61,858 nt of DNA from Acidobacteriota bacterium (GCA_030669585.1 DAOVDI010000002.1:1-61858), one strand, 5' to 3'. Positions 18,185 to 37,526 are shown, numbered from the stretch's first letter. The notes: a model not told the origin generated them from the sequence alone. Program-made: numbers and translations.

Positions 18185-18194
18185 AGTATCTCCC

Positions 18195-20367: not shown

Positions 20368-21723
20368 TTAGGAAAGATTGTATTTTTTAATTTTTGACAG
20401 GAGTGTTTTTCGGTCGATACCAAGAGCTTTGGCCGTATGACTTCTGTTCCCCTGGTGAGCGTGGAGAACTGTGGCGATGTATTCATTTTCAATCTGTTCC
20501 ATTGTTTTATACTTCCCGCCGACAGGAGTCAACAAGGAAAAGCTGGAACTGATCCCGTGATAGATGAGATCTTCCAGCCGGATCTCATCATCTGCTGAAA
20601 GAACAACCGCTCTCTCGATAGTATTTTCCAGCTCTCGGATGTTTCCTGGCCAGTTATATTCGCTCAGGGCTTTTCTTACTGTTGAAGAAATATTCCTTAT
20701 GCTTTTTTTTGTTTTTATATTGTACTTCTGCAGGAAATGACCGACGAGCAGGGGAATATCCTGTTTTCTTTCTCTCAGCGGAGGGAGGTGAATAGGAACA
20801 ACACTCAAACGATAGAACAGATCGTCTCTGAATTGTCCATGCCTGACGCATTCTGCAAGGTTTTCATTTGTTGCAGCAAGGATGCGGATGTCGACCTTGA
20901 TGGGTTTGGTGCTGCCGATACGCGTGACTTCCCGTTCCTGTATGACACGAAGGAGCTTGGCCTGGATATTCAGGCTGATATTGCTGATCTCATCAAGAAA
21001 TATCGTTCCCCCGTTTGCAACTTCAAATCGTCCGTGTTTTGTCTCGATTGCGCCAGTGAACGACCCTTTTACATGACCAAAAAGTTCGCTTTCAAACAGT
21101 GTTTCAACCAGCGCGCCGCAGTCGACTACGACAAAAGACGATTCCTTCCGCAGGCTGTGTTTATGGATCTCTCTTGCAAGCAGTTCTTTTCCTGTCCCGC
21201 TTTCACCTGTGATCAGAACAGTGCTGTCAGTCGGGCTTACACGCCTCACCATTTCAAAAACCGCATTCATAGCAGGGCTTTTACCGACGATCATATCGAA
21301 TTGGATCCTATCCTTCAGCTCTTTGCGGAGGTGGATATTTTCAAAATAGATTTTACGGCTTTCCAGTGCCTTGTGAACAATAACACGCAGCTCTCCAGGA
21401 CTAAAAGGTTTGGCCAGATAATCAAATGCGCCTCTTTTGATGGCATCAACAGCTGATTCGATTGTGGCAAATCCAGTGATGATGATCACCGGTATTTCCG
21501 GATTTCCTTCTTTGATTTTAGTGAGGATGTCCATCCCGCTGGGGCCGGGCATTCTTAAGTCCAGAAGAACGACTTGAAAAGTTTCCTCAATGATGGCTTT
21601 TAGACCCTCAATGCCATTTTGGGCATACTTGACTCTGAAACCCTCTTTTTTTAGCACCTGGCTGCATGAGTCCAGGATGGCTTCTTCGTCATCTATGACC
21701 AGAATATTGGCGGTTTCAGTCAT
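20368..21723 (-). CDS. Sigma-54-dependent response regulator (NtrC family: REC plus AAA+ plus HTH)
   Basis: 451 aa. REC (VIDDEE…DLRMPG). Walker A GESGTGKE. GAFTGA-like GSFTGA. Motif ESELFGH. C-terminal Fis-type HTH (HTAKALGIDRKTLLSKIKKY). Confidence 0.9.
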   Translation of the reverse strand: MTETANILVIDDEEAILDSCSQVLKKEGFRVKYAQNGIEGLKAIIEETFQVVLLDLRMPGPSGMDILTKIKEGNPEIPVIIITGFATIESAVDAIKRGAFDYLAKPFSPGELRVIVHKALESRKIYFENIHLRKELKDRIQFDMIVGKSPAMNAVFEMVRRVSPTDSTVLITGESGTGKELLAREIHKHSLRKESSFVVVDCGALVETLFESELFGHVKGSFTGAIETKHGRFEVANGGTIFLDEISNISLNIQAKLLRVIQEREVTRIGSTKPIKVDIRILAATNENLAECVRHGQFRDDLFYRLSVVPIHLPPLRERKQDIPLLVGHFLQKYNIKTKKSIRNISSTVRKALSEYNWPGNIRELENTIERAVVLSADDEIRLEDLIYHGISSSFSLLTPVGGKYKTMEQIENEYIATVLHAHQGNRSHTAKALGIDRKTLLSKIKKYNLS

Positions 21724-23701
21724 TTTTGTTCTCTCTATTCAGAGGCAGCTTTACAATAAATTCCGTTCCCTCATCAATCTTGCTTGACACCTCGATGGTT
21801 CCTTGATGTTTTAGAATGATGCTGTAACTGATAGCCAGGCCAAGCCCGGTTCCCTGGCCTACTTCTTTTGTGGTGAAAAATGGTTCAAAAAGCCTTTTAA
21901 GATCATTTTCTTTTATGCCGCATCCTGTGTCCTTAAACCGGATGTCGATGAATTTTTTATTCTTATTGAGCGAAGTGCTGATGCTCAGGGTCCCGTTTCC
22001 ATTCATGGCCTCAGCAGCATTCATGATAATGTTGATAAACACCTGCTGCAGTTGGGCGCTATCTGCAATGATCTTATACAGGTCTTCAGCATAATTCTTT
22101 TTTATGGTGATATTCTGGAAGAGGGATTGGCCTTCTATTATGGAGAGGGAGGTTTCCAAGGATTCGTTAATATCGATTTCCGTCGTCTCGGGTTCTTTTG
22201 GCCTGGCAAATTCGAGAAGACCTTTAACAATATCCTTGCATCGGGATGTTTCTTTGACGATTTTTTTCAAATTATCATAATAGGGGCTGTCGGCGTTTGT
22301 CCCCTCAAGTAAAAGATGGCTGTAGATTAGGATGCCGCCCAGGGGATTGTTTATTTCATGGGCAACACCTGCTGCCAGTTTTCCCAGGGAAGCCAGTTTT
22401 TCCGATTGAACAAGGTGCGCCTGCATCTTCCGTAATTCTTGTGTGCGTTCCTCGACTTTTTTTTCAAGGGTTTTTCCCCAGTTAACCAGTTCTTTGTTGG
22501 CTGTCCTTAGATTTGCGGTCATCTGATTGAATGAAGTTGCCAGGTACCCAAACTCATCTTGAGATCTCACTTCGACCTTGTGAGAAAGATCTCCTTTCGC
22601 TATTTTTTGAGTCGCTTCGACCATCTGTGTTAACGGTTTGATGATGCTGGAGGTAGAAAAATTGAGCATTACCAGAAGCACGACGACGCTGAGAGCAGCC
22701 AAAAGGCTGAATATCAGCATTACTTGTTTGACAAGATCCAGGTAAGGTTTTTCCATTATTCCAACATAAAGGATCCCGATGATCTTTTGGTCGACATTTT
22801 TGATAGGATCATAAGCAGTTATATACCAGTCATTGACGACAAAAGCTCTGTCTATCCAGGCCTTTCCTTCTTTGAGGACAGCGGAGTTGACTTCCTTGGA
22901 AACACGTGTGCCGATGGCCCTTTCCCCGTTATCTTTTTTTACGTTGGTGGAGATCCGAAGATCCTTCTGAAAAATGGTTGCTGTCCCGATCTCTCTGCCT
23001 TTATATTTTTCTTCTTTGTAAACAAGTTCCTTGACAAGATCCACGATCTCATAATTTCTATTCAGAAGAATGCCGCCGTAGAGGACTCCCATCAGGGTGC
23101 CGGATCCGTCAACAATCGGGGCAGCGGCTTTAAGCATAATTCCGTTGGTTTCGCGATCCTCCGGCCGTTCAGCGGCTTTTGGTGTGGGGATAAAAACCAT
23201 GTAAGCCTGATCGGCCAGGTCTTCTCCTTCTTTTAAAAGTTCTTTTCGAGAGATGATCTGAGGATGGGCAAGGACGCCTCTTTTAAGAGCCCATTTTATG
23301 ATCTTATCTCCTGACTGGTCATCTCCGATAATACCAGGGTTCCGTGTTCTGACAATCACTTTACCGGTATTATCTGTTAAAGTCAGGATATCGAGTCCGG
23401 TTTCTTCCCGCAGACGGCTGAGGTTTTCAAGAAGAGTGTTGTATTTTTTATTTTGTATATTTTCCTGCAGACGATTGCGTCCTGCTGTAAGATTGACAAT
23501 GTCTTTTATCTCTTTTAGCTTGGAATTAAAGACCATTCTTGCAGCGTCAAGGTCATGTCTTACTTTAGCCTGGGCTTGTGAAATCAAGGTGCTTTTCATG
23601 AGCCTGGAACCGAAGTAAAGGGATATCAGTCCACCAATGATAATAATTATCAAGAAGACAAGTATAATTTTTTTTCTTAGAGAAAAACGAGGAAATAACA
23701 T
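21716..23701 (-). CDS. Sensor histidine kinase (2 TM, large extracytoplasmic Cache-like domain, HAMP, HisKA, HATPase_c)
   Basis: 661 aa. TM1 ILVFLIIIIIGGLISLYF. An extracytoplasmic domain of about 300 aa, then TM2. HAMP (…DEFGYLATSFNQM). H-box AAGVAHEINNPL. G boxes DTGCGI and GTGLGLAI. 8-nt overlap with the NtrC gene. Confidence 0.85.
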   Translation of the reverse strand: MLFPRFSLRKKIILVFLIIIIIGGLISLYFGSRLMKSTLISQAQAKVRHDLDAARMVFNSKLKEIKDIVNLTAGRNRLQENIQNKKYNTLLENLSRLREETGLDILTLTDNTGKVIVRTRNPGIIGDDQSGDKIIKWALKRGVLAHPQIISRKELLKEGEDLADQAYMVFIPTPKAAERPEDRETNGIMLKAAAPIVDGSGTLMGVLYGGILLNRNYEIVDLVKELVYKEEKYKGREIGTATIFQKDLRISTNVKKDNGERAIGTRVSKEVNSAVLKEGKAWIDRAFVVNDWYITAYDPIKNVDQKIIGILYVGIMEKPYLDLVKQVMLIFSLLAALSVVVLLVMLNFSTSSIIKPLTQMVEATQKIAKGDLSHKVEVRSQDEFGYLATSFNQMTANLRTANKELVNWGKTLEKKVEERTQELRKMQAHLVQSEKLASLGKLAAGVAHEINNPLGGILIYSHLLLEGTNADSPYYDNLKKIVKETSRCKDIVKGLLEFARPKEPETTEIDINESLETSLSIIEGQSLFQNITIKKNYAEDLYKIIADSAQLQQVFINIIMNAAEAMNGNGTLSISTSLNKNKKFIDIRFKDTGCGIKENDLKRLFEPFFTTKEVGQGTGLGLAISYSIILKHQGTIEVSSKIDEGTEFIVKLPLNRENKND

Positions 23702-23794: not shown

Positions 23795-25255
23795 TTATCG
23801 TTTGAGTTGTTTAACCAATTCACCGGCTCTATCGTAGATGTTGATCTCGAGCGGCATATCTCCGGGCAGACAATGGGTTCCGCAGGCATGGCAGGGGTCG
23901 TACGGCCTGAAACCCATCTCGACCATATTCAGCAGTCCGTCGTCTACCTTACCTCCTTTGATGAAGGATTTTGCCGCTTTTTCAATGGACATATTGATGG
24001 CGGCAGCATTGTTAAGAGTGGCAACGATAAGATTCGCCTCGGTGATAATGCCTTTTTCATCTGTCTTGTAGTGATGAAAGAGCGTGCCGCGGGGGGCTTC
24101 GACAACACCGAATCCCTCATCCGGAGTTTTAGTCGGAATGTTGCGGATATGTGTGTTTGTGATATCCTTGTCCTCCAGCAGCTGAACCATTGTTTCCGCA
24201 GCTTGAAGCGCTTCGATCAGCCGGGCCCAATGAAAAGCCAGTGTGTGGTGAGAGGGCCTTCCTCCAAGGACCTCGAACATCTTTTCATAATGCTCCTGGG
24301 CCAGCGGCGACTGCATCCCATCCGCTGCGTTGAGGCGTGCAAGTGGTGCGACTCTGAACACACCTGAGTCTTTTCCTTCCTCAAAGCCTTTCCATCCGAC
24401 ATTTTTTAAGAATGGGAACTTGATATAAGTCCAGGGCTCTACATGCTCGGAGATGTGGTCCAAATATTCCCGGGCCTTAAATTTGGCGAATTCCTTTCCG
24501 TCCGGGTCGACCACACGGATGTCGCCGTCATAAAATTCGACTTTGTTGTCCGGTGTGACCATTCCCATGTAATAGGTTTTAATTTGATAGGCGTCGCCGA
24601 CAACAATGTCAACGTATTCCTTATTTTGAAGTACCACATCGTTGAAGATTTTCAAGGCGAATTGAGCAAATTCCACTGTTTCCTTGGCCCATCCTAAAAA
24701 TTCGACTCTGTGTTCTTCATCCAGCCCTTTGGAAACGCCGCCTGGAAGACCGCAAACCGGATGTATGATCTTTCCACCCAGATAGTTGATGATCTCACGG
24801 GTCAGCCTTCGGATTTTTATGACCTGTCCTCCGATCTCCAGGCCGACTTTGCCGATGACACCCAGAATGTTGCGTTCGGCCTTTGGAACGTTCGGGCCCA
24901 CAACAAAATCAGGCCCTCCCAGGAAGAAAAAGTGTAGAGTGTGATCCTCGAACTGGAAAGAATTGTAAATAAGTTCTCTGATTTTTTTTGCAGTCGGAGG
25001 TGGTTTGACATGCCAGAGGTCGTCTACGGCTTTTGTTGAAGCCATGTGGTGGGCGGTCGGACAAACGCCGCAGATGCGCGGAGTGATCCGCGGCATCTCT
25101 TCAGCAGGTCTTCCTACGGCGAACTGCTCGAACCCGCGCAATTCTGGTATCTGAAGGATAGCACGGTCCACATCTCCATTGTCATCAAGAAAGATCTCTA
25201 TCTTGCCGTGTCCCTCCAGGCGCGTAATCGGATCAATGGTAATTCTTTTGCTCAT
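23795..25255 (-). CDS. mvhA: [NiFe] hydrogenase large subunit, Mvh-type (group-3c-like)
   Basis: 486 aa. Motifs RLEGHGKIEI, RICGVCPTAH and C-terminal DPCHACGTH, followed by a 25-aa cleavable extension. Adjacent mvhG and mvhD. Confidence 0.85.
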   Translation of the reverse strand: MSKRITIDPITRLEGHGKIEIFLDDNGDVDRAILQIPELRGFEQFAVGRPAEEMPRITPRICGVCPTAHHMASTKAVDDLWHVKPPPTAKKIRELIYNSFQFEDHTLHFFFLGGPDFVVGPNVPKAERNILGVIGKVGLEIGGQVIKIRRLTREIINYLGGKIIHPVCGLPGGVSKGLDEEHRVEFLGWAKETVEFAQFALKIFNDVVLQNKEYVDIVVGDAYQIKTYYMGMVTPDNKVEFYDGDIRVVDPDGKEFAKFKAREYLDHISEHVEPWTYIKFPFLKNVGWKGFEEGKDSGVFRVAPLARLNAADGMQSPLAQEHYEKMFEVLGGRPSHHTLAFHWARLIEALQAAETMVQLLEDKDITNTHIRNIPTKTPDEGFGVVEAPRGTLFHHYKTDEKGIITEANLIVATLNNAAAINMSIEKAAKSFIKGGKVDDGLLNMVEMGFRPYDPCHACGTHCLPGDMPLEINIYDRAGELVKQLKR

Positions 25256-26235
25256 TTGACAGTCTCCATTCTTTTTCTTCTTAATATTGATGATGGAAGG
25301 CTGAATCGATAGAATGTTCCCGCTGGATCGACGATCGTGTTAACGATCTTTTCAATTTCTTCCTCATCATCTGAGTCCAGAAGTGATGCAAAGGCGCCTA
25401 GGAATTTTGCTCCCTGGTCGTAGACCTGGTCGGTAGGGCCGAAACAGCCTCTGCAGGGCATATTTCCGAGAATACAGCGTTCTTCGCATCCTGACCGGGT
25501 AGCAGGCCCCATACAGATAATCCCCTGGGCCAGGAAACATTTTTCATTGTCCATCTCGACTTCCCAGGGTCTTTTGACCGCTTTTATCGCCAGCTTTTCC
25601 GGTTTGGAATCATTGCGGCCACAGTCGTCGCAGAGAGATTTGTTTGGAGAAAGGACTGCTCCTTTGGAGGGGAGTTTCCCTTCCAGGATCGCTGTTATGG
25701 CGGTCATGATCAGATGTTTTGGGGGGGCGCAGCCCGGTAGATAATAATCCACATCGATCACCTGATCAAGTGTATAAACTGTGTCATAAAACCGGGGAAG
25801 AGTAAGTTCCTTGCCGTCTTCCATAATATGCTTTTCCTGGGGAATTGTTCCTTCAGGGTTGTCTGTGGATGGGGATGTGTGATATGAACTGTTAAAGATG
25901 GTCTTCCTGTTCCAAAAGTTAGCAAGTCCGGGGATACCGCCCAGATGGGAGCAGCTTCCAAAAGCAACGACAAGACCGGATTTCCGGCGCAGGAGGTTTA
26001 CCATTTCTTCCTGTTCTGAATTCCTGACAGCACCATTGATAAAACTTACAGCAATGGATCCGTCTTCCATTGCTTCTACATCCGTTTTTTTAAAATCCAT
26101 GGCAACCGGCCAGAATACGATATCAACAGCAGCTGTGACTTTTAATATGTCCTCTGCCAGGTCTATTACAGCTTCTTCACATCCGCCGCAGGATGCACAC
26201 CAGTAAAATGCGACTTTAGGCTTCTCTGTACTCAT
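25252..26235 (-). CDS. mvhG: [NiFe] hydrogenase small subunit, Mvh-type
   Basis: 327 aa. Motifs WCASCGGCEE, FGSCSHLGG, YLPGCAP and distal Cys motifs. No Tat signal, so it is cytoplasmic. Confidence 0.8.
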   Translation of the reverse strand: MSTEKPKVAFYWCASCGGCEEAVIDLAEDILKVTAAVDIVFWPVAMDFKKTDVEAMEDGSIAVSFINGAVRNSEQEEMVNLLRRKSGLVVAFGSCSHLGGIPGLANFWNRKTIFNSSYHTSPSTDNPEGTIPQEKHIMEDGKELTLPRFYDTVYTLDQVIDVDYYLPGCAPPKHLIMTAITAILEGKLPSKGAVLSPNKSLCDDCGRNDSKPEKLAIKAVKRPWEVEMDNEKCFLAQGIICMGPATRSGCEERCILGNMPCRGCFGPTDQVYDQGAKFLGAFASLLDSDDEEEIEKIVNTIVDPAGTFYRFSLPSSILRRKRMETVK

Positions 26236-26659
26236 TGATGTCTCCTTTCATAATATTTAATGGTCCTAATTCTTTGATCTGTTCTGTGAATTCGTCGCAT
26301 ACATTCTGGAATTTAGCGCCTTCAGCAGCTGAAACCCATTCCAGTCTGAGCCGTTCTTTTTCTATACCGAACTGTTCAAGCATTTTTCTTAAAAGGCGAT
26401 GTCGTCTCAAAGCTTTATAGTTTCCTTCTTTGTAGTGGCAGTCTCCTGGATGACACCCTGAAATGAGGATGCCGTCCGCCCCCTCTTTAAATGCTTTTAT
26501 CACAAACTGAGGGTCAACACGTCCGCTGCACATAACTCGAATAATTCGTATATTCGGAGAATATGTCATTCTGGCAGTTCCGGCAAGGTCTGCACCTGTA
26601 TAGGAACACCAGGTGCATAGGAAACCAATTAGTGTGGGATCGAAATTCTCGCTACTCAT
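26216..26659 (-). CDS. mvhD: MvhD/FlpD-type hydrogenase iron-sulfur (2Fe-2S) subunit
   Basis: 147 aa. Motifs FLCTWCSYTGADLAG, VMCSGRVDP and GCHPGDCHY. GGAGG RBS upstream. Confidence 0.85.
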   Translation of the reverse strand: MSSENFDPTLIGFLCTWCSYTGADLAGTARMTYSPNIRIIRVMCSGRVDPQFVIKAFKEGADGILISGCHPGDCHYKEGNYKALRRHRLLRKMLEQFGIEKERLRLEWVSAAEGAKFQNVCDEFTEQIKELGPLNIMKGDINEYREA

Positions 26660-26680: not shown

Positions 26681-28438
26681 TTATTCAATAAATATTCCTT
26701 CAATTTCGGCAAAAATCTGTTTATCACGGAAATGCTTCTGCTGGGCCGCTCCACTTGGACAGGCTGAAACGCAGGTACCGCAGCCCTTGCACAAAGCATC
26801 GTTGATTTCAGAGATTCCTTTTTCTTTATCATAAGTGATCGCTGTAAAAGGACAAAGTCCCACGCAGATCTGGCAGCCGGCGCAGAGCTCTTCATCGATC
26901 TCGGCTGTGATTGGTTCGAGATCAAACTTTCCCTTATCAGCCAGAGCAAGGGCCTCGCATGCCGCAGCACCAGCCTGTGCGACAGTATCGGGAATGTCTT
27001 TGGGTGACTGGCATGTTCCTGCCAGAAAGATCCCGTCAGAGAAAGTGGATACCGGAGCTAGTTTGGGGTGTCTCTCCAGGAAAAAGCCATCCTGGCTGCA
27101 GGAGATGTTGAAGACTTTGGCGATCTGGTTGGAATCTGTTCCGGGTTCCAGCCCGGTTGCCAGGATGACCATGTCCACCGGGATGCGCCTGACAACTCCG
27201 ATCAATGTGTCTTCTACGCGGATAATAAGCTTTCCTTCTTCTTCTTTGCTGAGAGCCATGTCACTTACTTCGGAGACACGTCCCCGGATGAATTTTGTCC
27301 CTTCATGAAGCAGCCGGTGATAAAATTCCTCATATCCTTTGCCGAAACACCTCATATCGATATAAAAATCGTAGATGTCTGCAGATGTCTTTTCTTTGAG
27401 TAAATGTGCAAATTTCAGAGAATACATACAGCAGACGCGTGAACAGTACTCATTGTAATTTTCGTCTCTAGACCCAACACAGTGGATGATGCCCACGGAC
27501 TTGGGTTCCTCGCCGTTGGATAAGAGAATCTTTCCTCCTGTCGGACTTGATGCATTAACAAGTCTTTCGAATTCCAGAGCAGTGATGACATTATCTAAAC
27601 GGCCATATCCATACGCTGGGATCAAGGAAGGGTCAAAGGATTTGAACCCGGATGCCAGAATTATCGAACCCACTTCGAGCTCGATTTCTTCATCCTGAGC
27701 TTCATGGTCGATAGCTTCTTTTTGACAAACATCTGAGCAGATCTTACATTCCCCCGTCTTAAAGTGGATACAGGCTTCTTCATCGATAAAAGGCACCATG
27801 GGGACAGCCTGCCGGATGGGAACGCGAATAGCGGTTGAAGGACCGAGATCCAGTTCGCTGTGAATTACTTTTCGGCCGTGAAGGTCTTCGACCGTAATGG
27901 CTCCGGTAGGACAGAAAAATGCACAGGCCGTACAGCCGATACATGCTTCGGACTGCTCACCGAATGGGGTGCAGACTTCCCGGTGCTGGCCTCTCTGGAG
28001 AAAACTGATGGCACTGGCACCCACAATATCTTCACAGGCCCTTACGCACATTCCGCAGAGGATACATTTTTCATCCGGATCTTTGATCTTGAAACGGGTT
28101 TTTTCTATACCCAATTCCTTCGCCAGTTCCTGGACAGGTACTGCGGCAGGTGCTTGAGCAAGGAGCATTTCGACATTCATTCTGCGTGCAAAAAGAGCTT
28201 TATCCGAAGCGGTCTGGATTTCCATCCCGTTCTTGACCAGTGTGTTACAGCTTGTGACGAGTTCAGAACCTTTGCCTGAAATGGATTCCACAACACAGAC
28301 CCGGCAGGCTGCATAGGGCTCCATTAGGGGGTGATAGCAAAGGGTTGGAATTTTGATCTCTTGCTGTTCAGCCGCTTGAAGAATTGTTATTCCATCCTCG
28401 ACCTGGATTGTTTTTCCGTCTATCTTTAAATTCACCAC
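26681..28438 (-). CDS. Fusion protein: HoxU/NuoG-N-terminal-like 2Fe-2S/4Fe-4S module joined to the C-terminal two-thirds of HdrA
   Basis: 585 aa with a GTG start after AAGGAG. Residues 1 to about 200 carry IDGKTIQV…CYHP…CRVCVVE…C (2Fe-2S) and CILCGMCVRAC. From about residue 165 there is HdrA-like sequence: CIGCTACAFFCPTGAI…RQAVP…CKICSDVC…VGSIILASGFKSFDP…CVGSRD…YCSRVCCMYSLK…FLAGTCQSPKDIPDTVAQ. Then a C-terminal 2x[4Fe-4S] (CAGCQICVGLCP, CKGCGTCVSACP). Confidence 0.75.
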   Translation of the reverse strand: MVNLKIDGKTIQVEDGITILQAAEQQEIKIPTLCYHPLMEPYAACRVCVVESISGKGSELVTSCNTLVKNGMEIQTASDKALFARRMNVEMLLAQAPAAVPVQELAKELGIEKTRFKIKDPDEKCILCGMCVRACEDIVGASAISFLQRGQHREVCTPFGEQSEACIGCTACAFFCPTGAITVEDLHGRKVIHSELDLGPSTAIRVPIRQAVPMVPFIDEEACIHFKTGECKICSDVCQKEAIDHEAQDEEIELEVGSIILASGFKSFDPSLIPAYGYGRLDNVITALEFERLVNASSPTGGKILLSNGEEPKSVGIIHCVGSRDENYNEYCSRVCCMYSLKFAHLLKEKTSADIYDFYIDMRCFGKGYEEFYHRLLHEGTKFIRGRVSEVSDMALSKEEEGKLIIRVEDTLIGVVRRIPVDMVILATGLEPGTDSNQIAKVFNISCSQDGFFLERHPKLAPVSTFSDGIFLAGTCQSPKDIPDTVAQAGAAACEALALADKGKFDLEPITAEIDEELCAGCQICVGLCPFTAITYDKEKGISEINDALCKGCGTCVSACPSGAAQQKHFRDKQIFAEIEGIFIE

Positions 28439-28449
28439 GTTTTATCTCC

Positions 28450-30282
28450 TTAATCGACCTTTACTGCACCGAATTTACATACGTCATAACACACGCCGCA
28501 TTTTGTACATTTATCCTGAATGATTTGGTGGGGTTGATTCCTTTCGCCTAAAATTGCGTCTGAGGCGCAGTTGCGCCGGCAGAGGTCACATCCATGGCCA
28601 GTGTTAACGCATATATCTTCATCAATGGTATAGACGTTCAGGTCCCTGCAGGTGTGAGCCGGGCATTTTTTATCCCTGATATGGGCTTCGTATTCGCTGC
28701 GGAAATATTTCATGGTTGTCAGGACAGGATTTGGTGCGGTTTTTCCAAGGCCGCACAGAGCGGAATCCTTGATGGAGACAGCCAATTCCTCCAACAGCGT
28801 AAGGTCTTCATCTGTTCCCTCTCCCTTGGTGATTCGTGTCAGAATATCAAGCATAGCCTTGGTCCCTTCCCTGCAGGGAGTACATTTCCCGCATGACTCG
28901 TCCTGGGTAAAAGAGAGAAAATATCGGGCTACATCCACCATGCAGGTGTCTTCGTCCATTACTACCATCCCGCCTGAGCCCATCATTGATCCGGCGTCGG
29001 ACAGGCTTTCATAATCAATAGGAAGATCGATCTTCTCTTTCGGAATACAGCCTCCTGACGGGCCTCCCGTCTGAACGGCCTTGAATTCTCTGCCTCCGGG
29101 AATACCGCCTCCAATGTCATAGATGATCTCTCTAAGAGTGATCCCCATGGGTACTTCGACCAGGCCGGTGTTATTGATCTTTCCCACCAGGGAGAAGACC
29201 TTTGTACCCTTGCTGGTTTCGGTTCCGATATGGGAATACCATTTGGCTCCCCGGTTGATAATGGGCGCGATATTGGCCCAGGTCTCTACATTGTTGATAA
29301 GTGTCGGGCATCCCCAAAGGCCTTTCTCGGCAGGATAGGGGGGACGCGGTTTGGGCTCTCCCAGCCGCCCCTCGATCGACGACAGCAGGGCGGTCTCTTC
29401 TCCGCATATAAATGCGCCGGCCCCGCGTACGATTTTGATATCAAAGTCCATCCCGCTGCCCAGTATGTTTTTTCCCAGAAGGCCGTACTCCCTGGCGTCA
29501 TCCAGGGCTTTGTACAGCCTGTTCAGGGCCAGCGGGTATTCATTCCGGACATAGGCATATCCCTGTGTTGCATTGATAGCCTTGGCTCCGATGACCATGC
29601 CTTCGATGACGGAATGGGGATCGGCTTCAAGAATACTCCGGTCCATAAAGGCTCCTGGGTCTCCTTCGTCCCCGTTACAAACAAGATATTTTACATTCCC
29701 GTTGGAGCTGACGGCATTGCTGACGAATTCCCATTTTAATCCTGTTGGAAATCCCCCTCCCCCTCGGCCCCGAAGTCCTGATTTTTGGATTTCAGATCTG
29801 ATATCTGAGGGAGACATACTGGTCAGAGCTTTAGCCATCGCCTTGTAACCGTCCCGGGCAATGTATTCATCGATTTTTTCCGGATCTATCAATCCCCTGT
29901 TTCTCAGGGCGATAAGGACCTGTTTTTTGAAAAAGTCAATATCACTCAGTACAGGGATGGGTGTTTTTTCTTCGGGAGGGATATACATCAATTTTTCAAC
30001 CGGGCGGCCTTTAAGAAAGTGCTCCTCAACAAGATGAGGAATATCTTTCGTCGTTAGGGTCTGATAAAAAATATTTCCCGGCTGGACAACCAAAAGCGGA
30101 CCCCTCTCGCAAAAACCATTGCATCCGGTCGTGACGATAAGAACTTCATTATCCAGGTCCTGTTTTTTTATTTCCGTTTCCAATGCTTCTTTGATCTCAA
30201 ACGAATGATTGGAAACGCAGGCGGTGCCGGCACAAACCATGAGATGGACTCGGTATTCTTTTTCCTTTTTTATTTTTGCCAT
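28450..30282 (-). CDS. NuoF-like NAD(P)H-binding FMN/Fe-S subunit (HydB/HndC/HoxF-like)
   Basis: Start taken at MAKIKKEKEY (30282, AAGGA RBS); the track start is 30315. N-terminal thioredoxin-like 2Fe-2S domain. NAD/FMN motifs GDEGDPGAF and GRGGGGFPTGLKW. N3 cluster CGKCTPCREG. C-terminal 2x[4Fe-4S]. Confidence 0.85.
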   Translation of the reverse strand: MAKIKKEKEYRVHLMVCAGTACVSNHSFEIKEALETEIKKQDLDNEVLIVTTGCNGFCERGPLLVVQPGNIFYQTLTTKDIPHLVEEHFLKGRPVEKLMYIPPEEKTPIPVLSDIDFFKKQVLIALRNRGLIDPEKIDEYIARDGYKAMAKALTSMSPSDIRSEIQKSGLRGRGGGGFPTGLKWEFVSNAVSSNGNVKYLVCNGDEGDPGAFMDRSILEADPHSVIEGMVIGAKAINATQGYAYVRNEYPLALNRLYKALDDAREYGLLGKNILGSGMDFDIKIVRGAGAFICGEETALLSSIEGRLGEPKPRPPYPAEKGLWGCPTLINNVETWANIAPIINRGAKWYSHIGTETSKGTKVFSLVGKINNTGLVEVPMGITLREIIYDIGGGIPGGREFKAVQTGGPSGGCIPKEKIDLPIDYESLSDAGSMMGSGGMVVMDEDTCMVDVARYFLSFTQDESCGKCTPCREGTKAMLDILTRITKGEGTDEDLTLLEELAVSIKDSALCGLGKTAPNPVLTTMKYFRSEYEAHIRDKKCPAHTCRDLNVYTIDEDICVNTGHGCDLCRRNCASDAILGERNQPHQIIQDKCTKCGVCYDVCKFGAVKVD

Positions 30283-30295
30283 TATCCACGTCCTT

Positions 30296-30685
30296 TCAGT
30301 AATCGGTTTTTTCACTGCCTATGCCCAGGGCATATTTTTCAACGATTTTGCCGCCGAGCACATGTTTTTCCAGAATTTCCTTAGTTTTAGCTCCTGTCAA
30401 TTCTACATATTTCACCGGGGCCTGCCCTTTGATTTCAACAGTCAGCATGGGTTCTTTGCTGCACAGCCCGGCACACCCGGAATTTGTCAGGAGGATTTCG
30501 GTTATATCTTGGGCTTCGATTTCTTCCATCAGAGCGGCCATGATGCCGCGTGCTCCTGCTGCTATTCCGCAGGTTCCCATATGGACAGTGATCTTTGCCC
30601 TGAATTCACTGTCGCCGCGGAGCATGGTTGTTTTTTTTGTTTTTTCTCTAATTTCTTCAAGATCTTCAAGTGTGAGTTTTGGCAT
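30296..30685 (-). CDS. Thioredoxin-like [2Fe-2S] ferredoxin (HndB/HydD-like)
   Basis: 129 aa. Motifs VHMGTCGIAAGA and SGCAGLCSKEP. Confidence 0.75.
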   Translation of the reverse strand: MPKLTLEDLEEIREKTKKTTMLRGDSEFRAKITVHMGTCGIAAGARGIMAALMEEIEAQDITEILLTNSGCAGLCSKEPMLTVEIKGQAPVKYVELTGAKTKEILEKHVLGGKIVEKYALGIGSEKTDY

Positions 30686-31160
30686 CTTTTTCCTCCTTCC
30701 TTCTTCCTTCTTTATATTTTTTTAATACGCCTGGAACCTTGGCCTGAGAGATCTTTCCATATACGTCCTCTCCAATCATTACAACAGGAGCAAGGCCGCA
30801 GCATCCGACGCAGTGAACTTCATCCAGGCTGAATTCCTTGTCTTCCGTGGTTTCCCCGGATTTGATGTTAAGTTCTCTTTCAAGTTTTTCGAGGACCAAC
30901 TGAGCGCCGCGTACATGGCAGGCTGTTCCCAGACAGACATGAATAGGATGTTTGCCTTTGGGTTCCAGGCTAAAAGCATTAAAAAATGTTGCCAGGCTCA
31001 ATACGCGACTGAGAGGTATATTCATCTCGCGGGAAACCTGCAGGATGGCTTCCTTCGGCAAATATCCGAGGGCCTCTTGGATATCCTGCAGAATAGAGAT
31101 AATTGAACTCTGGTCAGTTTCATAATTCGCAAGGATTTGGGAGATTTTTTCTGGATTCAT
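30666..31160 (-). CDS. NuoE-like [2Fe-2S] subunit (HydC/HndA/HoxE-like)
   Basis: 164 aa. Motif SIISILQDIQ. Cluster motifs VCLGTACHVRG and CVGCCGLAP. Confidence 0.85.
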   Translation of the reverse strand: MNPEKISQILANYETDQSSIISILQDIQEALGYLPKEAILQVSREMNIPLSRVLSLATFFNAFSLEPKGKHPIHVCLGTACHVRGAQLVLEKLERELNIKSGETTEDKEFSLDEVHCVGCCGLAPVVMIGEDVYGKISQAKVPGVLKKYKEGRRKEEKDAKTHT

Positions 31161-31705
31161 TTTTCCCTCCTAATAAGGTTTAACTTTTTATCTATTTTAG
31201 TTTTTAAGATGTTGATTACCTCTGGGGAGTTGATCGGAATGCCATCAAGTTGTTTTTTTATTTCCTTTGTGTCAAATGTGAATTCGGATCGATCGGATTT
31301 GGCTGAAAAAAAGATGTCAATATCCGGATGGCCTATGATCAAAGTGGCAAGGGTCTGTGATATGTCTCCTAGAGGCTTGGTGTCAATGTGGTCTGCCTTA
31401 AAAGTTGCTTTTATATTTGTTCCCTGACCGGCTTTGGAATTAATGACAAAACTGCCTTCCGCGCTTCTGGCGGCTTCGGCAAGCAATGACAGCCCAAGGC
31501 CGAATTTTCTTGTCTTTTTAGTTGTAAAAAAAGGATTTAATGCAGCATTCATGGTATCTTCCGTCATTCCTTTCCCGTCATCTGTGATTTCCAGGCTGAG
31601 CAGATTGTTTTTGCTGTCCTTCTTGATAGAGATTTCGATATTTCGGGCCTCTGCCCGAATCGAATTCTCAGCGATATCAAGAATGTGCAATGATAGATCC
31701 TCCAT
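31157..31705 (-). CDS. Stand-alone GHKL (histidine-kinase-like) ATPase, no H-box domain
   Basis: 182 aa. N box HILDIAENSIRA. G1 DDGKGM. G2 GLGLSL. It sits between the PHP and NuoE-like genes. Confidence 0.7.
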   Translation of the reverse strand: MEDLSLHILDIAENSIRAEARNIEISIKKDSKNNLLSLEITDDGKGMTEDTMNAALNPFFTTKKTRKFGLGLSLLAEAARSAEGSFVINSKAGQGTNIKATFKADHIDTKPLGDISQTLATLIIGHPDIDIFFSAKSDRSEFTFDTKEIKKQLDGIPINSPEVINILKTKIDKKLNLIRREK

Positions 31706-31710
31706 GTTTA

Positions 31711-32442
31711 TTAATGTAAGATTTTTCGTCCTTTTCTATTCAAAAATGCCATTTTAATTTCTTTGGCGGTTCCTTCTTTCATATAAAATTGTGTGTATCC
31801 TTTGCCGATATCGTCTGGAAAATGAGCATCGGATGATTGGATGATGGGAAGGGGAAAGTCATATTGGGATGCGGCCTTCTCAAATGACATCCTTCGGGAA
31901 ATTTCAAGGGCATCCAATTCAAGATTGTCCGGAAGGAATCCAAGCTGCCCGAGAAGACTGAATGATTCTCTGTCTATGTGAGCTGCAATGGCGATTCCGT
32001 TAAAGTCATGAATGAGATGGATAACTTTATCTATGGTAAAAGTTGAAGCGCCGATCAGGAGTTTTTTATTGAAATGAAGGACTTCATCATTTTTATTGAC
32101 GACGACCTGCATGCCGAATGCTTCCTCGTCGTTTTCGCCCGGGAGATTTTTATAGATCAATTCCTGAAGATGTAGAGCAGAACTCACATTGTCGAAAAGG
32201 GCCAGAATGTGGATTTCTTCGAGAGATGTGACTTCAATCCCTGGTAGTACGCGGATCTCATATTCAGCGGCTGCCTCTATGACAGCAGGAACATTTTCGG
32301 CCGAATTATGATCGCAAATGCCCAGAATATCAATGGACGATTCTCTGGCCTTCATGGCTATCGTTGTCGGCGACATCTTTAAATCCGCACATGGAGAAAG
32401 GCATGTGTGGATATGAAGATCCGCCTTAAATATTTTAAGCAT
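31711..32442 (-). CDS. PHP-domain metal-dependent phosphoesterase
   Basis: 243 aa. Motifs ADLHIHTCLSPC, ICDHNS, AAHIDR and SSDAH, the His/Asp motifs of the PHP fold. Confidence 0.75.
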   Translation of the reverse strand: MLKIFKADLHIHTCLSPCADLKMSPTTIAMKARESSIDILGICDHNSAENVPAVIEAAAEYEIRVLPGIEVTSLEEIHILALFDNVSSALHLQELIYKNLPGENDEEAFGMQVVVNKNDEVLHFNKKLLIGASTFTIDKVIHLIHDFNGIAIAAHIDRESFSLLGQLGFLPDNLELDALEISRRMSFEKAASQYDFPLPIIQSSDAHFPDDIGKGYTQFYMKEGTAKEIKMAFLNRKGRKILH

Positions 32443-32443
32443 T

Positions 32444-32785
32444 TTATTTTTTGGTATCTAAAAGGGCATACAATTTACCTGATATAACAAATGCCGAATC
32501 CTGAGTTGATAGAATGGGGATGTTTTCTTCCTCTGCTTTTTTCAGTGTTTCTTCGTCCGGCTTTCGATTATTCACGAGGATGATTCCAGAAAGTTCTTTG
32601 AGTTTTGCTACTGCTACGATGTTGAGGTGAATTTGAAGCGTGATCCACAATTCTTTTTCTTTGCTGTTAGCAATGACATCACTCAGAAGATCGCTTGAAT
32701 AACCGAAGCTGACCTTGTCTTCCAGGTTTTTATCGGCACTTAAGATTACAAGGTTTAATTTTTCTACGATTTGTTTAAGTGTCAT
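32444..32785 (-). CDS. DRTGG-domain protein
   Basis: Start placed at MTLKQIVEKLNL (32785), about 113 aa. The track ORF extends to 32908 inside the upstream gene. Motifs SDLLSDV and ILVNNRKPDEE…IPILST resemble the paralog at 34576. Confidence 0.6.
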   Translation of the reverse strand: MTLKQIVEKLNLVILSADKNLEDKVSFGYSSDLLSDVIANSKEKELWITLQIHLNIVAVAKLKELSGIILVNNRKPDEETLKKAEEENIPILSTQDSAFVISGKLYALLDTKK

Positions 32786-34139
32786 TTTTTTCTTCCTTTT
32801 TGCCTTTATCATTTGAGTCATCAGTGTCAGTGCGCCTCTCTTTGGCCGATTCGAGCTGCAGCTTGTAATCATCCGCAAGCTTGAAAATACAATCCGTGAT
32901 CTCGGCATCGGCTTTTACCACATCTTCAGCAAATGTCATGCATGTAGGGGAGCCGCAAGCGCCGCAGTCGATTTTGGGGAGGGATTCATATATTTCTTCT
33001 TTTTCCCTCATCTTTTGAATGGCGGCGGCAAGATTGCTGTCCAAAGGTTTAAGAGGCCTTGGTTCTGCCTTTCGTTTCATAGAAAAGTAATTTTGAGCAA
33101 ACAGTTTCCTGATATACCGTATATCCGAACATGCTTTAATTTCTTCGTATTCCAGTCTTTCAACGATCTTGAGGATTTTGTTGTAGCTGATGTATGAGTT
33201 TTCTACTGTCAGGGATCCACCTACGCATCCTTGTGGGCAGGAATAAGCCTCGATAAAGTCAATGTGGTTCAGTTTTCCCTGTTCAATATCATTAAATACT
33301 TTTATAATCTCGCTGATCCCGGAAACAGCCAGGGAATTTTTAAGCCGCAGGGTCCGGCTGATTCCTCCGACCATGGCCCATCCTATTCCAAGAATGCATA
33401 TGTTTTGCAGAGATTTTTTATAGCTTCGGCGTTCGACGCTTTCCATGGCTGAAAGCAGGGGTCCATAGATGTCCGAGATGGAGATGGCTCCATCAAGATA
33501 GGATCTTCCTTTTTCCGCAGGCTGTTTGATTGAGAGCATTTTAACCGGGCATGGAGTGATATAAAAAGTCCCGATATCCTTTTCATCGAGTCCGTATTGA
33601 GCCGATTTTTGTTTTTTAACCTCACGGCCTGCGATCTCTCTGGGGACGTTCAGAGATATGATGTGGTCGATCAAAGATGGGTATTTGACCTGGATCAAGC
33701 GTACAACCGTGGGGCAGGAATTGAAGATGACCGGCTTTGGACCTTTGTGTTCATTGAGATATTCATTTATAGCAAAGCTGACTTGTCCGCAGGTGTTTAT
33801 AAGGTCAAAAGCGTCATCAAATCCCAATTTTTTCAAGCCGTTCAATATCTCATATGGAAGAATATCCCTTCCGAATTGAGCAATAAGCGCAGGAGAAGGA
33901 ATGGCAACTGTGTGCCTGAATTTGGAGAGTTCACCGAAGGGGTCAGTTAAGGGAACGATAGCTCCCTCTGGACAGATCGTAATACATTCGCCGCAGTCGA
34001 TACATCTGTCTTCCAGGATAATGGCTTTTCCATTCCTTACCCGGATCGCTTGTGTCGGGCAGACGTGCATACATTTCATACGTCCGTTGCATTTGTCCTC
34101 TTCTATACGGATAGAGTGATAGTAGTGGCTGTTGTTCAT
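32775..34139 (-). CDS. [FeFe]-hydrogenase-like protein with degenerate H-cluster motifs (putative sensory, HydS/Hfs-like)
   Basis: 454 aa. N-terminal 2x ferredoxin-type Cys motifs. L1-like FNSCPTVV (canonical TSCCPxW). L2-like ITPCPVKM (canonical MPCxxKxxE). L3-like EAYSCPQGCVGGS (canonical ExMxCxxGCxxGGGQP). Extra C-terminal CGACGSPTC motif. Confidence 0.75.
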   Translation of the reverse strand: MNNSHYYHSIRIEEDKCNGRMKCMHVCPTQAIRVRNGKAIILEDRCIDCGECITICPEGAIVPLTDPFGELSKFRHTVAIPSPALIAQFGRDILPYEILNGLKKLGFDDAFDLINTCGQVSFAINEYLNEHKGPKPVIFNSCPTVVRLIQVKYPSLIDHIISLNVPREIAGREVKKQKSAQYGLDEKDIGTFYITPCPVKMLSIKQPAEKGRSYLDGAISISDIYGPLLSAMESVERRSYKKSLQNICILGIGWAMVGGISRTLRLKNSLAVSGISEIIKVFNDIEQGKLNHIDFIEAYSCPQGCVGGSLTVENSYISYNKILKIVERLEYEEIKACSDIRYIRKLFAQNYFSMKRKAEPRPLKPLDSNLAAAIQKMREKEEIYESLPKIDCGACGSPTCMTFAEDVVKADAEITDCIFKLADDYKLQLESAKERRTDTDDSNDKGKKEEKNDT

Positions 34140-34579
34140 TTTTTCCCGTTTAAATAAAATGTGACATCAAGGGTCGTCCCTTTTCCCGGCGAGGAAGAAA
34201 TATCAAGTTTATCTGCATTCCTTTTAATGTTGGGAAGTCCCAATCCTGCGCCGAATCCCATTTCGCGCATTTCATCGGTTGCGGTCGAGTATCCTTCCTG
34301 CATGGCCAGTTCGATATTGTTAATACCCTGGCCTTTATCCTTGAATGTAATATTGATGGCCGATAGGCTCAGACAAAGAATAACTTCCGCATGGTCCGCA
34401 TACATGACGATATTCATTTCCGCTTCGTAGGACGCGATGGCCGCCCTGCGTATGATGGCCGGAGCGATCCCGATCTCTTCAAGAATCTCTTTGATTTTTG
34501 TAGATACGATGCCGGCATGGCTGAAATTTCTTCCCTGGACATTAAATTTTTTTATGAATCCATTTCCCTGGCATATCAT
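34136..34579 (-). CDS. Stand-alone GHKL ATPase, anti-sigma-factor/Ser-kinase-like (SpoIIAB/RsbW-like)
   Basis: 147 aa. Motifs EAEMNIVMYA, DKGQGI and GAGLGLPNI. No HisKA domain. Confidence 0.7.
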   Translation of the reverse strand: MICQGNGFIKKFNVQGRNFSHAGIVSTKIKEILEEIGIAPAIIRRAAIASYEAEMNIVMYADHAEVILCLSLSAINITFKDKGQGINNIELAMQEGYSTATDEMREMGFGAGLGLPNIKRNADKLDISSSPGKGTTLDVTFYLNGKK

Positions 34580-34935
34580 GTTTTTATGGTCCTTTCAACA
34601 CCGGCAAGGCCGTGGTTGTACAACAGGCCGCAGGCTTTGTACATCATAAATTTTGTGGACAGCAGGGGAATGTTTTTTTGCCCGGCCAGTTCGATTCCAT
34701 TGCTATCGGGCTTTTTGCCCCGCACATAGATGACAGCATTGGCGCCAATGATGTCTGCTGTCCGTACTGTTTGTATATTGGACAGCCCTGTAAGCAAAAG
34801 GAGTCCCGGTTGACCGAAAGCGAGTACATCGCTCATTAAATCCGATCCTCCGGCACACTCGATCTCTACATCAAGGTAGTTCTCTCCGCAGATAAGATCA
34901 GCCTCCAGAATTTCTTTTATTTCTTTTAACTTCAT
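34576..34935 (-). CDS. DRTGG-domain protein
   Basis: Start placed at MKLKEIKEIL (34935), immediately after the hdrA-N stop; the track start is 34953. Motifs GGSDLMSDVL, LLLTGLSN and IYVRGKKPD…IPLLST. Confidence 0.65.
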   Translation of the reverse strand: MKLKEIKEILEADLICGENYLDVEIECAGGSDLMSDVLAFGQPGLLLLTGLSNIQTVRTADIIGANAVIYVRGKKPDSNGIELAGQKNIPLLSTKFMMYKACGLLYNHGLAGVERTIKT

Positions 34936-34936
34936 T

Positions 34937-36669: not shown

Positions 36670-37247
36670 TTTGCGTTCTCCTTAACTTCATTTAACAAAG
36701 TGCGCAGTTGCTTCCGGTTTTTGATCTTTTCTTTTTTTAAGCTCATTCGCCCAGTCTTCATCAGATTGATGCCCAGGGGGGCCATTTTTAACATACCGAG
36801 TGGATTTTTTAACTTAATATACATGTTCACAACAAGCCATAGTTCTGAATTCCGCCCGTTCTTCGCGATGAGCTTGCACATTTCTTGAGCAAGGACAGGA
36901 GGCTGAAGCCTGTTGGGATAAACTTTTTCTTCGATCGCTTTCCGTTTTAATGCATACATAACATCCGTGATCTTGATCTTTGCGGGACAGCGGACCTGAC
37001 ATGTATAACAAGAGGCACACAACCAGATGGTAAAACTCTTAAGAGCTTCTTCCTTGAATCCGTTTTTGATAAAGGAAATGATCTTCCTGGGGGGGTGGTC
37101 CATATAGACTGCCATAGGGCAGGAACTGCTGCATGCGCCGCACTGTATGCACTTGTCGATTTCTTCACATCCTGACATATCCTTAATTTCGTCTAAAAAA
37201 TTCTTGTCCAGCTCTTCTTCAAACTTAACCTTTCTCTGGATATCCAT
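36666..37247 (-). CDS. hdrC: Heterodisulfide reductase subunit C (2x[4Fe-4S])
   Basis: 193 aa. Motifs CIQCGACSSSCP and CASCYTCQVRCP. 4-nt overlap with hdrB. Confidence 0.85.
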   Translation of the reverse strand: MDIQRKVKFEEELDKNFLDEIKDMSGCEEIDKCIQCGACSSSCPMAVYMDHPPRKIISFIKNGFKEEALKSFTIWLCASCYTCQVRCPAKIKITDVMYALKRKAIEEKVYPNRLQPPVLAQEMCKLIAKNGRNSELWLVVNMYIKLKNPLGMLKMAPLGINLMKTGRMSLKKEKIKNRKQLRTLLNEVKENAK

Positions 37248-37497: not shown

Positions 37498-37526
37498 ATA
37501 ATATTTGTGAAATTTTGACTTGTCAA
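37498..37526 (-). promoter_or_regulatory. Candidate sigma-70 promoter for the hdr-mvh block, overlapped by a palindrome
   Basis: The minus strand reads TTGACA-17 nt-TATTAT. TCACA-N7-TGTGA (37494-37510) spans the -10. This would imply a leader of about 240 nt before hdrC. No sigma-54 match was found in 37248-37710. Confidence 0.3.

Follow-up and report, generated by a model that had tools for sequence, protein, structure and literature searches.

A minus-strand operon of 17 genes, in which neighbours from hdrC to mvhA overlap or stand apart by no more than 21 nt, lies in a 61,858-nt stretch of DNA from an Acidobacteriota bacterium (GCA_030669585.1 DAOVDI010000002.1:1-61858), hereafter the window. 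Here, we describe its 14th gene (26681-28438, minus strand), which encodes a 585-aa protein joining an N-terminal module like HoxU and the N-terminus of NuoG, classed below as a Type-2 BfuA, to the distal 60% of the bifurcating flavoprotein HdrA; the proximal 40% is encoded in the same operon as a separate protein, HdrA_N. The open reading frame (ORF) begins with GTG, has an AAGGAG ribosome-binding site 7 nt 5' of this codon, and is placed by gene annotation between a nuoF-like gene and mvhD, as an initial annotation made by a model from the sequence alone had placed it. Every motif quoted in that annotation was located in the ORF: the cysteine pattern C34/C45/C48/C64, CILCGMCVRAC at residues 125-135, CIGCTACAFFCP at 166-177, a further motif with C223/C231/C234/C238, CVGSRD at 320-325, CCMYSLK at 336-342, FLAGTCQSPKDIP at 471-483, and two CxxCxxCxxxC motifs between residues 519 and 560. 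Its assignment of the protein to a HoxU/NuoG-like N-terminus followed by the C-terminal ~60% of HdrA likewise agrees with the Pfam, NCBIfam and structure matches given below.

The N-terminal module spans residues 1 to ~186 (27881-28438, minus strand) and, by motif, carries one [2Fe-2S] cluster (C34, C45, C48, C64) and two [4Fe-4S] clusters (C125/128/131/135 and C166/169/172/176). Pfam Fer2_4 matches residues 1-78 (E 1.1e-15), and the NCBIfam models for HoxU (2.5e-32) and for the N-terminus of group A6 [FeFe] hydrogenases (4e-41) match the same end of the protein. Among solved structures, the closest relative is 9mqx_A, which is BfuA of the tungsten aldehyde oxidoreductase Wor-Bfu of A. mobile and aligns with residues 2-186 by sequence (E 1.8e-39) and by Foldseek with a root-mean-square deviation of 1.7 A over 181 columns; HoxU and the N-termini of HydA and NuoG follow as weaker matches. 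The protein contains no motif for a His-ligated cluster after the [2Fe-2S] domain, an absence already remarked on in the initial annotation: aligned to 8a6t and 9mqx, the H..C..C.....C motif of HydA (8a6t) falls in a deletion of ~20 residues that our protein and 9mqx have in common. C156 was considered as a substitute fourth ligand and rejected, being variable within the fusion family, among whose 32 proteins all 12 cysteines of the BfuA module are invariant.

The cysteine pattern together with the deletion thus gives a [2Fe-2S] cluster and two [4Fe-4S] clusters without the His-ligated and fifth clusters, as in Type-2 BfuA proteins, and the neighbourhood also follows that type, with a NuoF-like gene (bfuB) 11 nt upstream and a NuoE-like gene (bfuC) two genes upstream. 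Where the Bfu survey describes its BfuA types, Type 2 is the one receiving electrons from extra subunits (PMC9304861). One correction to the motif assignments is needed. The initial annotation had read both CIGCTACAFFCP and the CKICSDVC-type motif as belonging to the ferredoxin domain inserted in HdrA; the latter (C223-C238) is indeed the second motif of that domain, whereas CIGCTACAFFCP, which 9mqx carries too although it is a free-standing BfuA, is for that reason assigned to BfuA, as the second motif of its own ferredoxin domain. That CIGCTACAFFCP might serve both ferredoxin domains was considered and rejected, since HdrA_N and a single-chain relative, P0139, each have their own first HdrA motif and 9mqx already has CIGCTACAFFCP.

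From residue ~190 to residue 585 (26681-27871, minus strand), the protein is the counterpart of HdrA residues ~262-654. Residues 165-583 align with residues 245-650 of 5odc_A (E 6e-116), the match to 8rvu_a reaches E 3e-121, and NCBIfam HdrA2 matches with E 7.7e-133. The second part of the thioredoxin-reductase fold contains the CVGSRD...CSRVCCMY cluster site, the C-terminal segment of the FAD domain (DGIFLAG) is kept, and Fer4 matches at residues 512-565 mark the C-terminal 2x[4Fe-4S] domain; the half-fold and the C-terminal domain, both named in the initial annotation, are present in the alignments to 5odc and 8rvu. The features that typify HdrA, namely the CxGSRD...CxxxCC site, the distal FAD-domain segment and the C-terminal 2x[4Fe-4S] domain, are thus all found here, with cysteines that are nearly invariant in the family. 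A generic pyridine-nucleotide-disulfide oxidoreductase had been named as the outcome that would undo the HdrA assignment; both the scan with hidden Markov models (HdrA2 7.7e-133) and the structure comparison (5odc_A, Foldseek E 3.8e-37) return HdrA at a level well outside chance, so the C-terminal part is specifically HdrA. Scores stay below the curated NCBIfam cut-offs (444 bits vs 1100 for HdrA2, 365 bits vs 1400 for HdrA), as is expected of a 60% fragment.

What this fragment lacks is found in HdrA_N (34937-35788, minus strand; 283 aa), encoded 6.5 kb upstream beside hdrCB. HdrA_N aligns with residues 3-261 of 5odc_A (E 1.5e-99), and Pfam places an FAD Rossmann fold at residues 147-243 and Fer4 at 242-260. 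It contains the N-terminal [4Fe-4S] domain of HdrA, which is absent from the fusion protein, with C14, C16, C49 and C74 (aligned to 5odc residues 3-130), as well as the LDCSAC motif and the FAD-binding beta-alpha-beta unit (GGGIAG at 152-157). This is the only GxGxxG of the pair: the fusion protein has none, and a complete FAD fold is seen only when the two genes are taken together. The inserted ferredoxin domain is divided in the same way, with its first CxxCxxCxxxCP motif (KCNGCGDCWNNCP, C248-C258) solely in HdrA_N and its second (C223-C238) solely in the fusion protein. On the unsplit HdrA of a Hadarchaeota relative, used as reference, HdrA_N maps to residues 17-273 and the fusion protein to 253-653; once both fragments are combined the cofactor motifs of HdrA are complete, and the operon holds no further HdrA. 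Since the missing N-terminal part is encoded in the same operon, the fusion protein is one half of a split HdrA: the break in hdrA follows immediately on the first cysteine motif of the inserted ferredoxin domain, and the distal fragment carries BfuA at its front.

Predicted structures fit this division in an indirect way. The AlphaFold2 (AF2) model of the fusion protein alone has a predicted local distance difference test score (pLDDT) of 78 overall and ~90 for residues 1-135, and its template-modelling (TM) score against HdrA is 0.63 (8rvu_a) and 0.66 (6tjr_A), normalised by HdrA chain length. As a stand-in for the two-chain HdrA_N and fusion pair we modelled P0139, a natural single-chain relative of 660 aa composed of the HdrA N-part, a linker, BfuA and the HdrA C-part; with the same normalisation, its AF2 model scores 0.91 (8rvu_a) and 0.92 (6tjr_A), with a full HdrA core from which BfuA departs as an excursion. 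An alignment of split, in-line and canonical HdrAs made with MAFFT put the canonical N-termini on BfuA columns and was not used for modelling.

A gene broken in one place and joined in another might arise from misassembly, a frameshift or faulty gene calling, more so as the window DNA probably comes from a metagenome-assembled genome (MAG) and a related locus, L030, contains frameshifts and an internal deletion. The search for orthologous fusions and their neighbourhoods proposed in the initial annotation speaks plainly on this point: a single ORF of 584-591 aa recurs in over 120 clusters at 90% identity, drawn from assemblies of JGI, ENA, NCBI and Logan, and in 42 fetched loci, two of them on complete MAG chromosomes (OY969586.1, OY969762.1). 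Because the identical architecture occurs in independent assemblies that include closed chromosomes, the fusion is confirmed as real and not an assembly artefact. Dozens of these assemblies also have the separate ~283-aa HdrA_N, the start codon and ribosome-binding site of the fusion gene are intact, and a multi-gene stretch (a regulator cassette, the nuoE-like gene, a small ferredoxin gene and the nuoF-like gene) stands between the two halves. An artefact of any of these kinds is accordingly so improbable that it can be set aside. The locus L030 itself (L030:5662-11757, in an Aminicenantes MAG) has lost HydS through nuoE in an internal deletion that fuses a truncated HATPase gene to nuoF, and both its hdrB and its fusion gene appear to be frameshifted; poor assembly, or decay of this copy, is the probable explanation.

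The two halves also travel together. HdrA_N is encoded upstream on the same strand in 34/34 loci with enough flanking sequence, and a NuoF homologue adjoins the fusion gene in all 40 of 40; the loci counted are from Aminicenantes, Chloroflexota, clusters linked to electron-transfer flavoprotein (ETF) and others, L076 (see below) standing outside the count. Against ~30-40 Aminicenantes orthologues, HdrA_N has a mean identity of 84.9% and the HdrA part of the fusion (HdrA_C) one of 84.1%, vs 54%-80% for the other operon genes, and the corresponding identities to Chloroflexota are 63.8% and 63.4%. The rate of nonsynonymous change (dN) is lowest in HdrA_N (0.098) and 0.116 in HdrA_C; synonymous sites are saturated against all orthologues (pS ~0.8), which reduces the ratio to synonymous change (dN/dS) to dN and a rough upper bound. 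The two halves are thus the most conserved pieces of the operon and are under equal constraint.

These observations bear on how the protein is to be understood. The initial annotation had proposed a physical wire between an NAD(P)H module and an HdrA/Mvh module, and one way of taking this is that the fusion protein is a flavin-free Fe-S wire or scaffold passing electrons from NuoEF-like NADH oxidation to MvhDGA, as in a Hox-like NAD-linked [NiFe] hydrogenase, with HdrA_N-HdrBC being a separate unit or a remnant. The lack of a GxGxxG in the protein, its position directly between nuoF and mvhD, and its retained C-terminal ferredoxin domain would suit such a role; MvhD docks at this very domain of HdrA in the Mvh-Hdr structure. 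The conservation of the other half argues the opposite, as HdrA_N is the most conserved gene of the operon, shows no decay, co-occurs in every one of the 34 informative loci, is present in cis in P0139 and is fused to NuoE in two further loci (L071 and L072). Moreover, the fusion protein keeps the distal FAD-domain segment and half of the cysteines of the inserted ferredoxin domain, insufficient for clusters by themselves, and covers about two-thirds of the HdrA core fold (TM 0.63, vs 0.91 for the cis version). We consider a flavin-free wire improbable. Of the original proposal, the N-terminal module very probably does act as a wire of the NADH module, as a Type-2 BfuA beside a BfuB of bifurcating type. 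A flavin-less linker to a separate HdrA/Mvh module finds no place, since the only HdrA consists of the fusion protein and HdrA_N, the latter with the sole GxGxxG; a simple linear chain from NuoF through the fusion protein to MvhD fails as well, BfuA sitting instead at the low-potential exit port of HdrA.

The remaining operon genes, all on the minus strand, supply the modules on either side. BfuB (28450-30315; NuoF/HydB-like by Pfam and 7t2r_B; 621 aa) comprises an N-terminal [2Fe-2S] domain, an FMN/NADH site, a [4Fe-4S] cluster, an AHI..KKCPA..C site and a C-terminal 2x[4Fe-4S] domain. It aligns over its full length with the bifurcating NiFe-HydB 7t2r_B (E 2.5e-252) and keeps C438, H525, C531 and C536 along with the C-terminal di-cluster domain, and so appears from its sequence to be a BfuB of bifurcating type, as the sections of the Bfu survey on BfuB define the relevant features (PMC9304861). 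BfuC (30666-31160) is a [2Fe-2S] subunit like NuoE, HoxE and HydC (Pfam 2Fe-2S_thioredx E 1.6e-50; NCBIfam NuoE and HoxE), and between it and BfuB a small thioredoxin-like [2Fe-2S] ferredoxin is encoded (30296-30685; NCBIfam fdxn_Clost E 2.4e-12). A longer form of the NuoF/BfuB homologue (1022-1055 aa) occurs in some of the Aminicenantes loci and in those from Chloroflexota (L002:6915-9983 and L037:6802-9969, also L005, L006, L009, L016, L036 and L044), with GltD/NfnB-like Fer4_20 and Pyr_redox_2 domains in place of the C-terminal 2x[4Fe-4S]; this domain content suggests NADP(H) in place of ferredoxin at the C-terminal port of the longer form.

Downstream of the fusion gene lie the [2Fe-2S] adaptor MvhD (26216-26659; Pfam FlpD E 1.7e-57), the [NiFe]-hydrogenase small subunit MvhG (25252-26235; NCBIfam VhuG E 1.2e-62) and the group 3c-like large subunit MvhA (23795-25255; NCBIfam VhuA E 2.4e-131). 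Both Ni-binding motifs of MvhA are present (RICGVCPTAH at residue 60, DPCHACGTH at 453), and the hydrogenase looks catalytically competent from these motifs. With the small subunit and with MvhD next to hdrA, they agree with a group 3c [NiFe] hydrogenase, a subgroup given here by sequence similarity. A weak second MvhG/MvhA-like pair lies ~5.6 kb downstream in many related loci.

At the other end, the operon is headed by HdrC (36666-37247), a 2x[4Fe-4S] subunit with Pfam Fer4_8 and Fer4_17 matches and eight motif cysteines, and by HdrB (35785-36669), whose two CCG domains (Pfam CCG twice, E 8e-27) have their motifs at residues 42 and 192. Both are kept in related loci, specifically in all those with enough flank, a genomic association that is typical of HdrA. 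Between the hdrA halves sits a regulator cassette of six genes (31157-34953; Pfam), in the order orf125 (a weak DRTGG match, E 0.004), HATPase, a HydS-like [FeFe]-hydrogenase homologue, DRTGG, PHP and a second HATPase; the HydS-like homologue (454 aa) has Fer4, Fe_hyd_lg_C and PF04060 matches and no PAS domain. The cassette is specific to Aminicenantes, whose loci keep it; L037 and L038, from Chloroflexota, lack it, and the Chloroflexota order is hdrA_N, nuoE, nuoF and the fusion gene directly.

Taking these parts together, we think it rather probable, judging from the sequences, that HdrA_N and the fusion protein reassemble into an FAD-containing HdrA that is hard-wired to the Bfu module, to MvhAGD and to HdrBC, and is driven by H2; reassembly, FAD binding, the electron path, its direction and the disulfide substrate are what we infer here, whereas domain identities, the split, gene order and conservation are observed. 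In such an assembly, both chains would contribute to the inserted ferredoxin domain, with cysteines of the two polypeptides jointly ligating each of its two [4Fe-4S] clusters, and the BfuA module would project from this composite domain and dock BfuB and BfuC. MvhD-MvhG-MvhA would occupy the usual MvhD port and HdrC-HdrB the usual high-potential port. Low-potential electrons leave HdrA by its inserted ferredoxin domain, at which polyferredoxin docks in methanogens (PMC13518236), and because BfuA is fused precisely there, we wire BfuA to the low-potential branch.

By homology with Mvh-Hdr systems, H2 would reduce the HdrA flavin, at an FAD site contributed by both fragments, via MvhA, MvhG and MvhD, and the high-potential electron would pass through HdrC and HdrB to a disulfide. 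The low-potential electron would leave the composite ferredoxin domain for BfuA, cross first its two [4Fe-4S] clusters and then its [2Fe-2S] cluster, and enter BfuB through the [4Fe-4S] cluster there to reach the FMN, which would then reduce NAD+ and, through the C-terminal BfuB clusters, ferredoxin. Two bifurcation modules would in this way stand in series, and the machine would be expected to be reversible.

Several points weigh against this proposal. In the AF2 model of the fusion protein, pLDDT drops to 35-65 at residues 186-260, that is, at the junction and the half ferredoxin domain; such low confidence may fit a missing partner and is no proof of one. The position of the proposed BfuB 'B2' ligand (C476 of A. 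mobile) is a Thr here, as it likewise is in one of the two NfnB chains of our search (u169166, example 9n5u_B). Feeding electrons of about -500 mV into a module that normally takes them at about -400 mV would waste energy unless the H2 partial pressure is low, and Aminicenantes are described as fermenters (cited in PMC7509429), which favours H2 evolution over uptake.

The last point leads to the principal alternative, in which the same hardware runs in the opposite sense as an H2-evolving, electron-confurcating [NiFe] hydrogenase. BfuBC would then oxidise NADH and reduced ferredoxin and pass the electrons through BfuA and the composite ferredoxin domain to the HdrA flavin, and on through MvhD to MvhAG, with HdrBC as a second input or output (thiol/disulfide) or a regulatory branch. 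The cassette of HydS-like, HATPase, DRTGG and PHP genes and the small [2Fe-2S] ferredoxin of our operon speak for it, as these accompany confurcating HydABC operons of fermenters, and BfuB is closest to the HydB subunits of reversible bifurcating hydrogenases. Aminicenantes are furthermore described as fermentative H2 producers (PMC10766756; PMC7509429), and for Mvh-Hdr complexes of bacteria and Asgard archaea, operation toward H2 has been proposed (PMC9723677). By homology, however, BfuA is attached at what is the low-potential acceptor port of HdrA, and a reverse run needs either thiol oxidation at HdrB or a non-bifurcating passage through FAD, for neither of which we found a precedent; nor does the conservation of HdrB and HdrC in all loci with enough flank allow them to be vestigial. 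We regard this reverse direction as a possibility to be taken seriously, though not the likelier course, and retain the H2-driven assembly as our preferred reading.

Related arrangements give the evolutionary context of the split HdrA. The closest relatives outside the split group are unsplit hdrCBA-mvhDGA loci in Thermoleophilia, Hadarchaeota, another archaeon and Anaerolineae. In the Planctomycetota locus L046:7685-11074, an unsplit HdrA of 1129 aa accommodates a GltD/NfnB-like NAD(P)H module of ~400 aa directly behind the first of its inserted-ferredoxin motifs. P0131 has a further 2x[4Fe-4S] ferredoxin at this position of HdrA, which is a recurrent insertion hot spot. The single-chain P0139 is encoded in a Bam-like gene context with an aldehyde:ferredoxin oxidoreductase family (AFOR) gene. 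In L071 (6858-12941) and L072 (1361-9928), HdrA_N is fused to NuoE (423 aa) and followed by NuoF and then by BfuA-HdrA_C, which in L072 is additionally fused to MvhD; both loci are hydrogenase-free, with HdrCB or large CCG proteins and genes for ETF and acyl-CoA dehydrogenase adjoining. The hydrogenase-free locus L076 (3728-11243), on a complete Dehalococcoidia genome, has hdrC, hdrB, a 143-aa HdrA_N, nuoE and nuoF, and the next gene encodes a BfuA-HdrA_C-HdrA protein of 1080 aa, a form that belongs to a large family.

The split form is thus found with Mvh hydrogenase, in ETF-linked clusters and in a Bam-like AFOR context, and a core gene order of hdrC, hdrB, hdrA_N (free or fused to bfuC), bfuC, bfuB and bfuA-hdrA_C is common to several phyla. 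As a more daring and so far tentative view, a whole operon may have been inserted into a gene, yielding a two-stage, hard-wired bifurcation cascade in which the low-potential branch of HdrA feeds the FMN/Fe-S site of Bfu directly instead of soluble ferredoxin, through a connecting ferredoxin domain whose two polypeptides share clusters, and representing an unrecognised, widespread 'Hdr-Bfu' enzyme class. If this were true, H2 at very low partial pressure could drive the reduction of NAD+ and ferredoxin, with disulfide reduction as the cost.

Among described systems, one close to the operon is the MvhAGD-HdrABC complex of methanogens, an H2:heterodisulfide/ferredoxin oxidoreductase (5ODC, 8RVU, 7BKB), all six subunits of which (HdrA, HdrB, HdrC, MvhD, MvhG and MvhA) are encoded here in the hdrCBA-mvhDGA order seen in the unsplit relatives L065, L066 and L070. 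It differs in that HdrA is made as two polypeptides with the break inside the inserted ferredoxin domain and BfuA fused at the break, in that an NADH/FMN BfuBC core replaces the free ferredoxin or polyferredoxin at the low-potential port, and in its host, a bacterium without known coenzyme M-coenzyme B heterodisulfide (CoM-S-S-CoB).

To our knowledge, the poorly understood Bam-Bfu is the only described system that joins a BfuABC module with an HdrA-type module, and the only one for which serial bifurcation has been put forward. This class II benzoyl-CoA reductase (BamBCDEFGHI) combines BfuABC (BamGHI), an HdrA-type subunit (BamE) and an MvhD-like subunit, much as our operon does. In contrast to it, a Pfam scan found no gene of the tungsten AFOR family (BamB/BamC) in our operon, which sets it outside the Bam-Bfu group; the partner is a [NiFe] hydrogenase with HdrBC, and the proposed order of the bifurcation steps is reversed. 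In the passages of the Bfu survey devoted to Bam-Bfu, two serial bifurcation steps are proposed, BamI and BamE are named as separate subunits, and no split HdrA is reported (PMC9304861).

With the Bfu family at large (HydABC, NiFe-HydABCSL 7T2R/7T30, Wor-Bfu 9MQX, NfnABC), as set out in the relevant sections of the same survey (PMC9304861), our operon has the BfuBC core and a Type-2 BfuA in common, its BfuA part being closest to that of Wor-Bfu. Unlike in those enzymes, the third-substrate module is a second bifurcating flavoprotein, HdrA, covalently joined to BfuA. The functionalities that the survey lists in these sections are without Hdr or Mvh, and metagenomic data were excluded from it (PMC9304861). 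The large HdrL-type HdrA with a GltD/NfnB-like insertion (PMC12142623) offers a parallel, with a module that oxidises NAD(P)H sitting at the corresponding point of HdrA, as in L046. There, however, the insertion is a single in-frame domain and the gene is whole, whereas here a three-subunit Bfu module is involved and the gene is split. FlxABCD-HdrABC of sulfate reducers also links NADH oxidation to HdrABC, through Fe-S subunits and an MvhD-like protein. Flx differs from our system in having an unrelated NADH flavoprotein that enters at the MvhD port, and is not known to include a hydrogenase, a NuoEF-type core or a split HdrA.

All components therefore come from known families (HdrABC, MvhAGD, Bfu), and the combination of Bfu with HdrA is preceded by Bam-Bfu. 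The new elements are that HdrA is split, that BfuA is joined to it covalently at the low-potential port, that a ferredoxin domain composed of two chains is implied, and that a [NiFe] hydrogenase is the partner. A full-text literature search found no description of a split HdrA or a BfuA-HdrA fusion, an earlier mention in the HdrA review of Appel et al. (2021) not being excluded.

The arrangement is of wider relevance for bifurcation. [quoted passage not shown] Here, the two are covalently joined at a defined point, with an input (H2) and outputs (NAD+, ferredoxin, disulfide) that can be assayed. If the halves reassemble, the system would be a natural test bed for serial bifurcation, a split flavoprotein with a ferredoxin domain common to two chains, and an evolutionary case of a multi-gene module inserted into a gene. 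Hundreds of metagenomic proteins labelled '(2Fe-2S)-binding protein', 'FAD-dependent oxidoreductase' or 'HdrA' share this architecture, and routine hydrogenase typing would call the locus an ordinary group 3c Mvh-Hdr, overlooking the NADH link.

Some further features of the window concern the regulation of the operon and its surroundings. A sigma-54 promoter before the operon was considered and rejected, as a pattern search gave 3 matches in the window vs 1.7 expected, none of them 5' of hdrC. One exact sigma-54 consensus (TGGCACAATAATTGCA) lies at 15367-15382 on the minus strand, upstream of the ORF 14966-15337, within a window count that is not above chance. About 250 nt 5' of hdrC, in an AT-rich region of 460 bp, there is a near-consensus match to a sigma-70-type promoter (TTGACA, 17 nt, TATTAT; 37498-37526, minus strand), read by eye and resting on the consensus. 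A Cache/HAMP histidine kinase and a sigma-54-dependent response regulator (20368-23701, minus strand) lie between the operon and a second cytoplasmic [NiFe] hydrogenase cluster downstream (15663-20113, minus strand). This second cluster looks like a sulfhydrogenase (group 3b) and encodes a Fer4_22 subunit (19052-20113), an FAD/NAD-binding subunit with a DHODB-type Fe-S domain (18195-19055) and a small subunit (17402-18184), all on the minus strand, together with a large subunit of 580 aa that ends in a HycI-like maturation-protease domain (PF01750, residues 497-577).

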